A stretch of DNA of 64,000 nt from Lophium mytilinum (GCA_010093605.1 MU004190.1:124001-188000), one strand, 5' to 3'; shown: positions 53,953 to 58,830, counted from the stretch's first letter. Translations and numbers: made by a program. Notes: generated by a model from the letters alone, not told the origin.

Positions 53953-56190
53953 CTAGTCACTTTCTACGTCTCCACTACTTGGAGGGCCAGAAATAACGCT
54001 TTCTTGCTCGTAGCCGCTACTATCAGACTTCGACGCATCCTCATCAGGAATAGACTCGGCAACATCGCTGTCATTTTCCACAGACTCGGCATCATCGCTG
54101 TCATTATCCACAGACTCGGCATCATCGCTGTCATTATCCACAGACTCTTCCTCGCTGGACACATATTCGTAGCCTTCATTTGCTACCCTGAGCCTGTGTT
54201 CTGGATTCACCATGGTTCGTGAGCCATAGCATTTGAAGCACACCAGAAAACTGGAACATTCCATACAAGTATAATATCGCCCGACAATTCCCTAGTCTCA
54301 ATGATTAGCGTTATGCAGTGTTGTATTATCGACTGCTCTAGTTCTCACCATGAGGCAAATGCCACAGAAATAGTTGTCGCCGTCGGCATTGTCGCTGCAA
54401 TATATCTTCGCCCTTTTGGTCTCGCGGTCTGGCCAATTCGGTGGATCCAAGAGCTCAAGGATCTCGTCGGAGAGTCCGTAATACTCGGCGACTTCGTAGG
54501 GCCTCCATTGTCTGAATAGAACCTTACCACGGGCAGGCGCTGTTACATCTGCGCCATGCTTTTTCAACTCCCTGATTATATCGCCGCGCTCAGATGATTC
54601 CGTATCCCAGAAGCGACATTCTCGAAGAGCCCAGAATAGTGGTGTCCAGCCGTCGCAGTCCCCCTCTGTGACTAATCCTGGCTGTTCTTCGATAATGTAC
54701 TTGACAAGATCAAGGCGACCACTGACAACCGCAAAATGGAGTGCATTCCGCTGCATCCTGTCTTTGACAAAAAGTTCAGCTTTCACTTTCCGGCCTTCTT
54801 TTCGTAGCAGCTTGACGAAATCCAATGTACGATACAGGGCATGGTGCATAGGTCTTCGCCAAATTTGGTCCTGGGAGTTGATAACCGCACCGCGCTCGAG
54901 GAGTGATTCGACGATGTTTGTATCGGCCACTAGGCAAGCGGTATGTAGATTGCTTCCCCACCGGTAGCTGCGCTGGCAGGCGATAGCTGTGGTATTCTCC
55001 AGTAGGTAGGCGAGTACACTCGATGTTTCTTCATCCTTTCTGAAGCATGCCAACTGGAAAAGAGTGCAATCTCCTCCGCGATCTTTAATGGTATCACCGT
55101 CCTTGCCGACCAGAATCTTGATCACATCTAGAGAGCGCCATGAGCATGCAAAATGCAATGGTGTATCAAAATACGACAGCTGTGCGTTGACGTTCGCCCC
55201 TCTCGAGACCAGGAACCCAGTCTGCTCTACATTTCCATGAAGAATTGCTTTCGAGAGAGGGGTGTCTTTTTTCGAATCGGCAGTGTTTACTGAGGCTCCG
55301 CGGTTGACGAGGAGTTTAAGTATTGAGATATCAGTCGTAGGCGACACACAATTGAGTGCAGTTCGGCCGAGCTCATCGGGTGCCTCAATCTCAATGCTGT
55401 ACAGAAGCAAACTTCTCAGGATATCCTCCATATTTTTCTTTACGCATCTGCGAAGAAGATGTCGCATTGCCTTCTTCGTCATATGGTGAAACGGATACAT
55501 GCCAGCGTCCAGAAGCATCTTTGCTATTTTTTCTTCACCATTACCGACTGCAGTGGAGAGGTATGTCCCGCCATGGACCACCAGGCTGAGGTCCGGCTCA
55601 TATTTCAGTAGCTCTTTAACCGAGTCCCCTTTCCTGTAATGGCAAGCCAAGTATAACGCGGTCCTCCCGATACTAGTTTCAGCATCGATTTGTGCTCCTG
55701 CCTGGAGCAAGAGCCGCAGAATATCAGCATTGTCGTAGGCGGCATGTAACGGTGCCCAGCCGTCTTCATGGTCTTCTGGAGTGTTTGGATTTGCCTTGGC
55801 CTTGAGTAGATGTTCCACAATCTCAACGTAGCCCTTGAATGCAGCATGGTACAGCGGAGTTCGGCTTCCTCGGATAGTCTTCTTCTCTAGGTTTGCTCCT
55901 CCCTCGACAAGGAGCATCACAGCATCCGGAATGTTTTTCTCAACGGCCACTGCAAGATGGTGTGTCAGTGCCTCGATGTACTTTTCCTCGGACAAAGTTT
56001 TTCGGCCTCCTTCGACAAGGAGTTTAGCGGATGCTTTGTCTTCGAGTATGCCACCATTGAGCAAACTGAAAGAGCGCACTTAGTAAATGGTTGTGCTACA
56101 CCTAAGCAAGAAGCTGATGGCTTACTCAATTACCTCTCCCGGGGCATCGTCCCCTCCCTTCGCTTCCGAGCTATCAGAATTGGATGGCAT
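53953..56190 (-). CDS. Ankyrin-repeat protein with C-terminal ZZ-type zinc finger and acidic tail, 3 exons
   Basis: Many TPLH/TAL ankyrin repeats. Intron 54292-54348 gives FCGICLMGIVGRYYTCMECSSFLVCFKC......PEH. Plausible first exon 56190-56126 via intron 56066-56125. Confidence 0.8.
54052..54147. repeat. Coding 30-bp tandem repeat x3 (ESV[D/E]NDSD[D/V]A)
   Basis: CAGACTCGGCATCATCGCTGTCATTATCCA, near-perfect units. Confidence 0.9.
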
Positions 56191-56529
56191 GATGAGGCAC
56201 TTGTCAAAGTGATTTTCGCCGTTACTAAAATGTGGTAAAAGTGATTGGAATAGTATTATGGTGAAGAGAGAATGTAAGAGCTAAAAGCGGCACCGGTGGC
56301 TTTTATATTGTCTTGCACATGCTACGTACAGACTAATAATTCCAAAGGAGTCACTGAGGGGCTCGCTCACCGTGTGATGCAAGTTTCATCATGACTCCAA
56401 CTGCCACAGACTGTATGGCACGGCTCTATCCGCCCCAGCGCCAATGTACTAAGAAGTATGTTCCCCTTCGACTTCGTGCATGCTCTCGCTTTCGGGTATC
56501 TCAGCTCCAGAATTCATCCTCGTAGATAA

Positions 56530-57264
56530 TCTCACATATGCCTACAAACCCCCGTCTTCTCGGTCAGATTTTCGAAAAGCTTCCAAGACACTGAATCGTC
56601 TTTCCAAAGTCGCAGAGCAGCTCAATAGATTCTATGACTCTACTGAAAGTCTCATCGTTACGTTCAATCGTCTTCTCGCGTTTCAAGTCGCCCCCCAATC
56701 TGCTCTCCAACCGGAAGTTGGCCCCCTCGTCTCGCACAAAGTGCTCGTGATGCTGTTTCGGGTTCGAGAAGAAATTGCCATTGGAATACGTGACCACCAC
56801 CTCTGAAATATCCATCCCCTTCATCGCAATGGCGAATTAGAATGTCGTGCGGACTGCTTTAATTGGTGCAGCGACACTATTGGGGTCAAGGCGGAAATTG
56901 ACGACCATCAGGATGTAACGGCAGTGTTCATCACCAGATAAGGAGACGTGTACAATGTCTTTGCGTTCGTAGCGAATAGCAACATGGCTCTTGCGTTGAG
57001 CCACTAGAGGGCGCTGGTATGGGTCATCAGGGTCGTTTTCCATGGGAAAGAGGTCATCATACCCCGCAGGATGCAACAAAAAATGAAGCTCTGCAACGTT
57101 TTCCGCAGATCAGAGTTCCCCACTACTGGAGCTGAACGCATGCTGGTGGTGCTCCGCCTTTGATAGTTTTGCAAGGCGCTGAGTCCGTAATCGGTTCGGT
57201 CCAACCCTGATGACTCCCAGGATGGTGATTTCGGCGCCAGCGCTTTCCAAGAATCATTATCCAA
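56530..57264 (-). pseudogene. Disrupted beta-rich uncharacterised protein gene
   Basis: Colinear fragments with a frameshift near 57080, TAA at 56837-56839 and a frameshift near 56600: ILMVVNFRLDP...AV..TF*FA...EVV...NGNF..NP...GANF......GGDLKREKT...GK/DSVSWKLFENLTEKTGV. Confidence 0.6.
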
Positions 57265-57739
57265 TGGGCAGAGCTAACCAGAAAAAAGATAGGGGAGGAT
57301 GAGTGACACATGTGCCAAGGAGGAACGGTGGCAAGATCGAGCAAGAAAAGGAACAGATTGACTGCGTCGTGCATCAAGCAGGAGTATAGCCTCTGAACGC
57401 ATCTCCCGGCCACCTCCCGAGGTTATCAGGGTGTTACAATGGCTTCTAATCCTTGGAGAGCTGTTTCAAGCCAATAAGCTCGATTTTCCAAGAGCTCTTG
57501 TCCTATGTTTCATAGAAACCTACCCAAACACTAATCACCGCTGCACCGCCAAATTACACTATGTGGGTGTTGGGCGCACCCGATCAGCGATTGAACATCA
57601 CAGGTTCCGCTCAGCCTCCTCTGAGGCTGCAGAATCGTCTGTCACTCCCTCATCGCATTAAGGACTCCTTCTTTTCTGGTGCTTCACTACGCAGTCTACG
57701 ACTCTACGCCTGCTTTCCATTATTCGGGGCCTACTATTC

Positions 57740-58830
57740 TGAATACGGAAACTCCAGATCCCCGATCACCGTAGGCAGCAACTCAGAGAGCGGAAGTAAC
57801 GACTATGACGGCCCGCAATATAGCGGGGGGGCAGAGTCAGATGATGCGGGAGAGAAAGGAGAAGTCGAGGGTGACTATGAGTTGGGGAGTGACTCCGACA
57901 GCATCGCTAAGAAAAATGCCCAAGAGGAATCGAACAGAATCAGGGACGAGTGGGAGGAGAAAATGGACCAATTCTGGAAGAAACTTAAAGTTGCTAAATT
58001 GAATGCGAATGAGCAAATGTAGGCTGGAATCTTCACAGAGTACGCGGATTATATTGATCCGCGCTCAGGACTCAAGAACGTCTGGATAGAAGTTCCAGCC
58101 CATATGAGAAACGTTCTGTTTAAGATTACCCACGAAGGCGTGAGTTTAGGCCAGTCCCTTGGCTGGCAAAGTGTCTTTCGTTGGATGAAGTCTATCATAA
58201 GTTACTAGCAGAAGCAGACGGCTCAGGTTCAAATGTGCTCATCGAGGCGATCCAGAACAAAATGCATTGGCTCATTGAGGCTATCCTCGACAGCGAATTT
58301 CCAAAAGAGGAGCTTCAGAAATTACCAGGTCCGACCAAAGGGGAAAAATGATCACCGAAATTTGAAGGGCGAGCAAAGGCAATTGCATCCGCACCGCTCT
58401 AGAGACGGACGGCTTCGAGACACCCACCCTTGTTCGGCTGATCGAGATAGCGTATGGACATACGCTCACTCACCAAGATCCCATCGGGCGTACTCCATTA
58501 CACTTCGCGGCTCGCTATGAAAAAGCACGGCTGACAAACTTGATGTCATCTGCACTCTCATGAAATGCGGCGATGAAGCGTCCGATAAGCGCAATAAAGC
58601 ACCCGAGTGTTCCGTTTATCAATATCTGTGTGAGACCCGGCAGACGTACAACACAAAGGAAGCAGAGAAGAAGAACAAAGAAAGGATCAATGCTGTAGAA
58701 CTAGCACAGCAAGACGTTCGCGGAGTTCAAGGGCCCAAAGCCCGAAGCGGTCAAGGAAGAAGAGAGATGTAGAGGCAGGGTCCGCAGAAACGGCTGATCA
58801 ACGTATCAGAGCTGCTGATAAAGCAATCGT
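57740..58830 (+). pseudogene. Disrupted gene resembling the ankyrin-like N-terminal region of fungal intracellular S8 proteases
   Basis: In-frame TAG at 58020 and 58206 plus several frameshifts. Fragments VLIEAIQNK..WLIEAIL, GNCIRTAL...LVRLIE.A...LTHQDPIGRTPLHFAARY (core at 58474-58518), V..LMKCGDEA.D......SVYQYLCETR. No catalytic domain is visible. Confidence 0.5.

Follow-up and report, generated by a model that had tools for sequence, protein, structure and literature searches.

A decayed three-gene locus in Lophium mytilinum, the probable remnant of an ascomycete cluster proposed as a protease-gated pore-forming death system

A 64,000-nucleotide stretch of the Lophium mytilinum genome (GCA_010093605.1, MU004190.1:124001-188000; here called the window, with positions counted from its first letter) contains three adjacent damaged genes. 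The locus is best explained as a whole, and with reasonable probability, as the dead remnant of a conserved ascomycete three-gene cluster, which we propose to be a protease-gated pore-forming death system. The cluster comprises a NOD-like receptor (NLR) gene, a gene for a small β-rich protein and a gene for a large S8 protease with ankyrin (ANK) repeats. An earlier note, made from the DNA alone, had placed an ankyrin-ZZ gene and two broken head-to-head reading frames in this region. All three damaged parts are confirmed at those places, and both head-to-head frames are indeed interrupted by stops and frameshifts:

53953-56190, minus strand: ANK-ZZ gene, open over 706 codons, with ATG at 56190 and stop at 53953-53955.
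56535-57253, minus strand: pseudogene of a family of ~300-amino acid (aa) proteins with a predicted leukocidin fold; positions 22-216 of the 304 in the family profile remain.
57254-57740, no strand: spacer between the two head-to-head relics, described from arrangement only.
~57741-58769, plus strand: pseudogene of an ANK-S8 protease gene, confined to the N-terminal ankyrin region; it contains an acidic stretch and, in three frames, three pieces supported by the profile.

All three cluster genes are disabled in the window, and the locus is a pseudogenised copy. We report here the lesions, the family relationships of the three genes, the gene neighbourhood of intact relatives and the predicted fold of the small protein.

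The relic on the minus strand is a genuine pseudogene and belongs to a real ascomycete family. Using a profile of 14 intact relatives (304 positions), three colinear pieces were matched on the minus strand: profile positions 22-109 at 56840-57109 (E 2.9e-18), 115-194 at 56567-56836 (E 3.9e-7) and 194-216 at 56535-56621 (E 5.4e-6). The frame running from 57253 to 56567 reads through with two in-frame stops only (TGA 57110-57112 and TAA 56837-56839). The final piece lies in a different frame, which demonstrates a frameshift within 56567-56621, and the relic terminates with a stop at 56532-56534. No match to the last ~88 profile positions (217-304) was found at the relic, nor was an in-frame ATG found upstream of its conserved region. 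Two features singled out in the earlier note prove to be real. The W.L.EN...K.GV motif (SWKLFENLTEKTGV) is located in the shifted frame, within the 56535-56621 piece, and the Gly-rich amphipathic segment is the remnant of a hairpin that is present in intact members:

56682-56738, minus strand: remnant of the Gly-rich amphipathic hairpin (GANFRLESRLGGDLKREKT), a candidate pre-stem, identified by alignment to the Gly/Thr/Ala-rich hairpin of intact members.

Overall, the identity between the relic and 19 intact members is 20-32%. When the read-through relic was used in an exhaustive phmmer search, 27 proteins were obtained at E<=1e-3, most of them 296-319 aa in length and colinear from approximately residue 13 to 185. 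Besides the genome's own model, the best match was P0007 (E 1.2e-18, query 43-212 against residues 13-184). Named members derive from Aaosphaeria (Aaosphaeria arxii), several Alternaria species, Scytalidium lignicola and Thozetella, all annotated as 'hypothetical'. A word-index search with the relic returned the genome's own model only (one match from 472 candidates). In the ESM Atlas, the family corresponds to Ascomycota clusters with 139, 122 and 58 members, to which no common Pfam family is assigned, and none of 26 intact members matches any Pfam family at E<=0.01, Leukocidin (PF07968) and Gasdermin included. The N-termini of the family are acidic and devoid of a hydrophobic leader. A C-terminal tail of ~60 aa is conserved, as is a DDPxLF(D/N)P motif, and the conserved Phe lies 42 residues before the end of P0007. 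The intact small protein is thus predicted to be a cytosolic protein of ~300 aa, with an acidic disordered N-terminus, an all-β core, a Gly-rich amphipathic hairpin and a conserved tail.

The genes surrounding intact family members were inspected by scanning metagenome contigs with five members of the family. This gave 21 loci, of which two weak ones were set aside (L021, and L020, where the neighbours are bacterial-type), leaving 19. An NLR-type neighbour was called from an NPHP3_N domain and/or an ankyrin region homologous to the cluster NLRs. Such a neighbour occurs in ten of the 19 loci (L001, L004, L005, L007, L008, L009, L011, L013, L017, L018), a protease-type neighbour in 12 (L001-L005, L007, L008, L010, L011, L013, L014, L016), and both together in seven (L001, L004, L005, L007, L008, L011, L013); the latter represent six lineages once family proteins at least 98% identical are collapsed. 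The NPHP3_N domain was found in the NLRs of L001, L004, L005, L007, L009, L011, L013 and L017. Wherever the contig reaches far enough, the protease gene contains Peptidase_S8, identified by Pfam in L001, L005, L007, L011 and L013 (whole-ORF E 7.3e-5 to 6.3e-15; ORF, open reading frame) and by tblastn in L014. The ORFs of L001, L007, L011 and L013 carry the S8 motifs of Asp, His and Ser (IDDGV, GHGT and TGSS). Both expectations of the earlier note, that homologues of the small protein adjoin S8 protease and NLR genes and that homologues of the plus-strand relic carry an S8 domain, are therefore borne out.

The commonest order is NLR (minus), family gene (plus) and protease (plus). The protease gene can be found co-directional and downstream of the family gene, head-to-head and upstream of it (L002, L010, L016), or tail-to-tail (L014), and in L018 the 3' end of the NLR lies upstream, on the same strand as the family gene. 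As the orientation of the protease gene differs between loci, its association with the small gene outlives rearrangement. The head-to-head arrangement of small gene and protease found in the window recurs, with the same layout, in L002, L010 and L016, but it is only one of at least three orientations. The layout of the window is the common cluster layout with the small gene inverted and the 5' half of the NLR lost. L017 is a second decayed cluster: of the family gene, only residues ~21-111 persist (4029-4388), next to the NLR, and a cytochrome P450 gene follows.

The plus-strand relic is the decayed ankyrin N-terminus of a large ANK-S8 protease gene from which the S8 domain is gone. It was compared with a profile of nine N-terminal ORFs from ANK-S8 genes that neighbour intact relatives of the small gene, the E-values referring to a small local database. 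Profile positions 134-171 match 58124-58348 (E 1.4e-3), 186-234 match 58366-58560 (E 6.7e-9) and 234-289 match 58521-58769 (E 8.4e-8), all on the plus strand; the three pieces are successive along the profile, each in a different frame. The last two matches abut at ~58530, and the frame change at this point is therefore a real indel; an intron as its cause is excluded, since the adjoining matches leave no space for one. For the frame change at 58140-58201, an intron (GTGAGT...AAG candidate) is in principle a possible cause; homologues have one continuous ORF at this position. The three motifs previously noticed in this relic correspond to conserved columns in the alignment of ANK-S8 N-termini (ENC.H.AI, G.TPLH.AV.Y.R and CD.A.D...S.Y.YH), and a reverse tblastn search with a piece of the relic (P0004) gave matches in five loci (E 5e-6 to 3e-3). 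Pfam Ank is weak on the relic (E 0.017), a word-index search with its 5' piece against longer proteins gave no match (140 candidates), and in the ESM Atlas the protease N-terminus retrieves generic ankyrin clusters only. When the S8 and middle-region ORFs of L005, L007, L011 and L013 were compared with the window (tblastn, E 1e-2), no match was obtained. Of the earlier description as an S8-protease-like relic, the homology to an ANK-S8 gene thus stands, but what is left is the ankyrin N-terminus only, with no S8 sequence remaining in the window.

The ANK-ZZ gene begins 342 bp after the last stop of the minus-strand relic, close to the ~340 bp originally estimated, and is the open 3' remnant of an NLR of the NACHT-ANK-ZZ type. 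The following parts were read from the sequence:

56126-56190, 54349-56065 and 53953-54291, minus strand: exons of the ANK-ZZ gene.
56066-56125 (60 nt, GTAAGC..CAG) and 54292-54348 (57 nt, GTGAGA..TAG), minus strand: introns of the ANK-ZZ gene.
54041-54147, minus strand: three 30-nt tandem repeat copies in the acidic tail of the ANK-ZZ gene (SVDNDSDDAE-like units).

Acidic tails likewise end the homologous NLRs of L005, L007, L011 and L013. The ankyrin repeats are recognised as Pfam Ank_2 with an E-value of 2.5e-57, and the large exon aligns over 556 aa, at 33.8% identity, with residues 865-1403 of the L011 NLR ORF (1419 aa, E 2e-73), with similar matches in L013 and L005. The second intron splits the ZZ-type finger. 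The resulting layout of a CxxC, an intron at the same place, the rest of the ZZ finger and an acidic tail is shared between the window, L005 and L007, and is degenerate in L011 and L013. As the first CxxC is located in the preceding exon, the second half of the window ZZ was compared with PF00569 alone and yields E 0.0032 and 17.7 bits (profile 16-39) against a cut-off of 21.4; the homologous halves of L007 (26.8 bits) and L005 (23.6 bits) exceed the cut-off. Neither NACHT nor NPHP3_N was detected by Pfam in any large window ORF, and the NLR ORFs of the clusters match only 54343-56049 by tblastn. No protein identical to the ANK ORF was found among those of 326-1038 aa in a protein search. The suggestion that this gene is an ankyrin-ZZ sensor is accordingly supported as far as homology to a cluster NLR is concerned, but only the 3' half persists, the NACHT and N-terminal parts being gone. 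The 1.7-kb exon is open and both neighbouring relics are full of lesions, which suggests either recent truncation or else retained use.

Judging from the ORFs of the intact loci, the complete protease would be a protein of ~1100 aa, with N-terminal ankyrin repeats, a conserved middle region and a C-terminal S8 domain with the Asp/His/Ser motifs. The complete NLR would consist of an N-terminal domain, a NACHT-type NTPase (NPHP3_N), ankyrin repeats, a ZZ finger and an acidic tail. Conserved regions of both were located as follows:

L007 12656-13201, L013 12568-13284 and L011 10775-11401: conserved ~180-aa middle region of the protease, in the interval between ankyrin repeats and S8 domain.
L001 6475-7065, L016 256-831 and L002 3-338: conserved ~180-aa middle region of the protease in further loci.
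L013 8787-9239, L011 ~5300-6700, L007 8299-9099 and L004 1279-1692, minus strand: N-terminal exons of the NLR, with VHG...W, GYD and FxGxPH-type motifs.

Pfam searches at E<=1 assigned no family to the protease middle region or to the N-terminal exons of the NLR. The N-terminal domain of the NLR may resemble a SesB-like α/β-hydrolase, a tentative label based on a reading of the motifs. At the place where the GxSxG serine is expected, DFGG or DFGS is found in the two loci read there (L011 and L013).

An AlphaFold2 model of P0007 was calculated from 26 sequences, with a mean predicted local distance difference test score (pLDDT) of 76.5 and a predicted template modelling score (pTM) of 0.71. The model is all-β, with 16 strands, and the acidic N-terminus (residues 1-36) is disordered. 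The hairpin comprises residues 136-171, with strands 136-148 and 159-171 separated by a low-confidence Gly-rich loop; the hairpin remnant of the window aligns with these two strands. The C-terminal tail is modelled with confidence (block means 89-97 for residues 251-290) and is predicted to pack on the core. In a Foldseek search of the PDB, only α-hemolysin/leukocidin toxins are among the matches listed (NetF, Epx4, C. perfringens β-toxin, LukGH, γ-hemolysin, CytK, NetB, V. cholerae cytolysin (VCC) and α-hemolysin), with E 6.6e-7 to 8.5e-5. The best is NetF (E 6.6e-7, probability 1.0), and the probability is 0.98-1.0 for E-values from 6.6e-7 to ~1e-5. VIA-align, which is independent of Foldseek, was run against 48,161 representative chains. 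The top seven matches all belong to the α-hemolysin/leukocidin family (Z 10.1-8.1), ranging from the NetF pre-pore (Z 10.1, root-mean-square deviation 3.0, 150 residues aligned) to VCC (Z 8.1), and are followed by unrelated sandwiches at Z<=7.2. A second model, of P0024 (40% identical to P0007, pLDDT 68.1), gave the same top seven with Z 10.0-7.8. The predicted structures of both members combine the cap β-sandwich with the central stem/pre-stem hairpin that characterises PF07968, which is also the nearest named cluster in the ESM Atlas (0.87, a lead only). No gasdermin chain is among the Foldseek and VIA-align matches listed, an absence that does not exclude one. The non-enzyme fold anticipated for the small protein is thus what the models predict, with pore-forming toxins of the α-hemolysin/leukocidin type as best matches. 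In the ESM Atlas, longer Ascomycota proteins (425-467 aa, in clusters of 74, 288 and 335 members) also match the predicted fold of the family, with template modelling (TM) scores of 0.64-0.68, and the distribution of the fold in fungi may extend beyond the ~300-aa family.

The intact loci most likely encode a protease-gated, non-gasdermin pore-forming death module, for which we infer cleavage, pore formation, cell death and a role of the NLR. The small protein would be a latent pore-former. A signal would be sensed by the NLR and/or by the ankyrin repeats of the protease, upon which the S8 protease would remove an inhibitory extension, most likely the C-terminal tail. The cut might fall around the conserved DDPxLF(D/N)P motif; cleavage after the conserved Phe is predicted to free 42 residues in P0007. 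The freed core would then oligomerise and insert its hairpin into the cell's own membrane, and the cell would die. The combination of sensor, protease and non-gasdermin effector proposed in the earlier note is largely supported by the synteny, the S8 neighbours and the predicted fold.

Whether the locus is dead at all has to be considered in view of a 140-aa 'hypothetical protein' in the public databases (P0002, from the BU16DRAFT_562090 model of Lophium mytilinum). P0002 is identical to the read-through relic over its exons and removes a 57-nt GT..AG stretch at 56783-56839 on the minus strand, corresponding to 19 codons that include the in-frame TAA. If this were a genuine shortened gene with a true 57-nt intron, the locus would be alive and functional. 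The skipped stretch starts with GT, ends with AG and holds a CTAAT branch-like site, and the model has its public entry in its favour. However, the 19 skipped codons align without gaps with coding columns of 19 relatives, and among them F140 is invariant in 20 of 20 sequences. The 57-nt intron was consequently rejected, the homologues being coding throughout; as the skipped codons are conserved as coding in relatives, the annotated intron represents a bypass of the nonsense codon. The 140-aa model furthermore begins at a Met inside the conserved N-terminal motif, is devoid of profile positions 217-304, and terminates in a frame that is unused by relatives, with the SWKLFEN motif in another frame. 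A β-sandwich without its last strands is unlikely to fold. We consider a living short gene highly improbable; the public model has the appearance of an annotation artefact by which a pseudogene is rescued.

With the locus read as a pseudogenised copy, it remains to weigh what the intact cluster does and whether it is a cluster. The small protein could be a β-sandwich adaptor, bait or guardee that the NLR and the protease bind or monitor through their ankyrin repeats, in which case any death would be brought about by another executioner. Generic β-sandwiches (adhesins, cohesins, the AP2 mu domain) reach Z 6-7.6, near the toxin scores, the rim domain is unaligned, Pfam Leukocidin does not match, and the cluster NLR has an N-terminal domain of its own as a possible effector. 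Two independent models and two aligners nevertheless place at least the top seven matches within one toxin family, covering the whole core. A latent pore-former also fits with the Gly-rich amphipathic hairpin, which is conserved, and with the likewise conserved tail and its confident packing, and a dedicated S8 protease beside a small non-enzymatic protein is a known signature of protease-gated effectors, as reported in PMC8851545 and PMC12642450. An adaptor or bait thus seems unlikely, though it is the strongest competitor. The adjacency itself might alternatively reflect synteny inherited within a single clade, or chance, given how abundant NLR and ANK genes are, the window then containing three unrelated genes decaying in an NLR/HET-rich region. 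Many loci are indeed related at 64-83% identity, and two HET-domain genes near the window relics are typical of fast-evolving regions. Against this, the trio recurs where family proteins are only 44-59% identical (L011 and L013 compared with the rest), and again in the window, with a family relic only 20-32% identical to the 19 intact members. It is found in three different orientations, and its partners have decayed or been truncated together, all three in the window and the family gene beside the NLR in L017. Coincidental or merely inherited adjacency is, in our estimate, decidedly less probable than the adaptor or bait.

A number of observations weigh against the proposed pore-forming death system. 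The structural match is of moderate strength (Z 8-10, where the background is ~7), with Foldseek TM scores of 0.19-0.37 and a sequence identity to the toxins of 8-14%. Only 143-178 residues align, of toxins that are 264-296 residues long (663 for VCC), and a rim domain is therefore not evident. A search of PDB sequences with the family profile gave nothing significant (best E 0.15, an unrelated protein), and the lack of a Leukocidin match among the 26 intact members points the same way. A shared fold moreover says nothing of function. The syntenic loci are metagenome contigs, and six of the nine lineages compared are mutually 64-83% identical. Four of the 19 loci display no partner: L006, L012, L015 (flank ~1 kb or less) and L019, in which a family-gene fragment (2-181) lies beside a P450 gene. 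In the window, the 5' part of the plus-strand relic (57741-58139) contains an in-frame TAG at 58020-58022 and resembles the family by eye only, and a tblastn search with the N-terminal protease ORFs of L005, L007, L011 and L013 (E 1e-2) did not find the relic. Against the window ANK ORF, values of E 1e-50 are reached by unrelated animal ANK proteins; because ankyrin repeats inflate similarity in this manner, the assignment as an NLR leans on the shared ZZ, intron and acidic-tail layout. Cleavage of the small protein by the protease, and its site, are predictions from the conserved, confidently modelled tail together with precedent, and the link of the NLR to the other two genes is one of neighbourhood only. 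Taking both sides together, the remnant of a protease-gated system is still the reading of the locus that we prefer. The wider proposition, that ascomycetes use an endogenous cytosolic death executioner of the α-hemolysin/leukocidin fold, licensed by an ANK-S8 protease and coupled to a NACHT-ANK-ZZ NLR, is put forward tentatively, with the balance tipped slightly towards doubt.

The remainder of the region was also surveyed. The GC content is 0.47-0.58 across it, and no AT-rich block, looked for as a sign of repeat-induced point mutation from the GC profile across the region only, was found. Based on its arrangement, the spacer at 57254-57740 was probably a divergent promoter region. In one sequencing run, the RNA status of which is a guess, two short contigs at 54088-54228 were observed and none elsewhere. 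Other ORFs of note are:

60753-62882, minus strand: HET-domain ORF (Pfam HET, E 5.6e-26).
8825-10825, plus strand: HET-domain ORF (Pfam HET, E 5.9e-34).
52827-53633, minus strand: ORF for an HD-domain protein (E 2.1e-6), unrelated to the cluster.
59157-59639, minus strand: Ser-rich ORF, unrelated to the cluster.

The two HET-domain ORFs place the window within a region rich in genes of the incompatibility/immunity type. The Ser-rich ORF sits where the missing 3' part of the protease gene would be.

Protease-gated pore-formers represent a central logic of innate immunity, exemplified by the gasdermins of animals, fungi and bacteria and by Pepco and EACC1 in bacteria. Within the full-text literature that was searchable, which includes few subscription journals and no supplements, no description was found of a fungal NLR/protease cluster with an effector of the hemolysin or leukocidin kind, and in fungi only gasdermin-type effectors are tied to S8/CHAT proteases; a 2025 review of fungal cell death mentions neither 'hemolysin' nor 'leukocidin'. 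The intact three-gene set thus looks like an undescribed protease-triggered cell-suicide system. If this is true, the family would be a new family of executioners and a third class of fungal death pore-former, beside the HeLo/MLKL-like and gasdermin classes. A classic fold of secreted bacterial toxins would then serve as an immune executioner inside eukaryotic cells, linking bacterial β-barrel toxins to eukaryotic regulated cell death. For the Lophium mytilinum genome the result is a smaller one, a pseudogenised copy and an artefactual 140-aa gene model.

Among known systems, HET-Q1/HET-Q2 of Podospora anserina and the fungal gasdermin clusters in general offer the closest comparison. According to the available accounts (Clave et al. 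2022, PMC8851545; review PMC12881547), HET-Q1 loses a C-terminal fragment of ~5 kDa, probably after F238, to the S8 protease HET-Q2, and approximately 80% of fungal gasdermin genes adjoin protease genes, often with ANK, TPR or WD40 repeats. As described there, the shared features are a gene for a small, cytosolic, latent effector beside a gene for a cytosolic S8 protease, the latter often with ANK, TPR or WD40 repeats or NLR parts, in sets of two or three genes. In the intact relatives studied here, the putative effector gene likewise lies beside an S8 gene with the triad motifs, the window itself being without S8. The removable C-terminal piece of ~5 kDa in HET-Q1 has a predicted counterpart in the ~42 residues after the conserved Phe. 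In contrast to the gasdermin systems, the effector is predicted to be all-β and hemolysin/leukocidin-like, with no Pfam Gasdermin match in any of 26 members, and the NLR is encoded separately and has no protease domain.

The α-hemolysin/leukocidin toxins (NetF, γ-hemolysin, α-hemolysin, CytK, LukAB and Vibrio cholerae cytolysin) are the best structural matches (Z 10.1-7.8), and the central Gly-rich hairpin of the family lies where the toxins have their stem. The family protein differs in having no detectable sequence relationship to them, in being shorter without an evident rim domain, and in its acidic N-terminal extension and conserved C-terminal tail; it is also a eukaryotic protein, associated with an NLR and a protease. 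Since it has no signal peptide, it would act inside the producing cell, unlike the secreted toxins. In the nwd2/het-S clusters, as outlined in PMC12881547, an NLR gene similarly lies beside the gene for a membrane-targeting death effector; there, the signal passes by amyloid templating to a HeLo domain, whereas the third partner here is a protease gene. Pepco and EACC1, compared by description only, are bacterial protease-gated non-gasdermin pore-formers, small proteins that owe their licensing to an adjacent serine or cysteine protease fused to sensors (STAND/Avs), with Pepco activated when its C-terminal tail is taken off (PMC12642450). They differ in being bacterial and in their folds and sizes, Pepco being a pre-assembled barrel of 117 aa in the same account. 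Overall, the intact cluster would combine a gasdermin-like logic with a hemolysin-like executioner.

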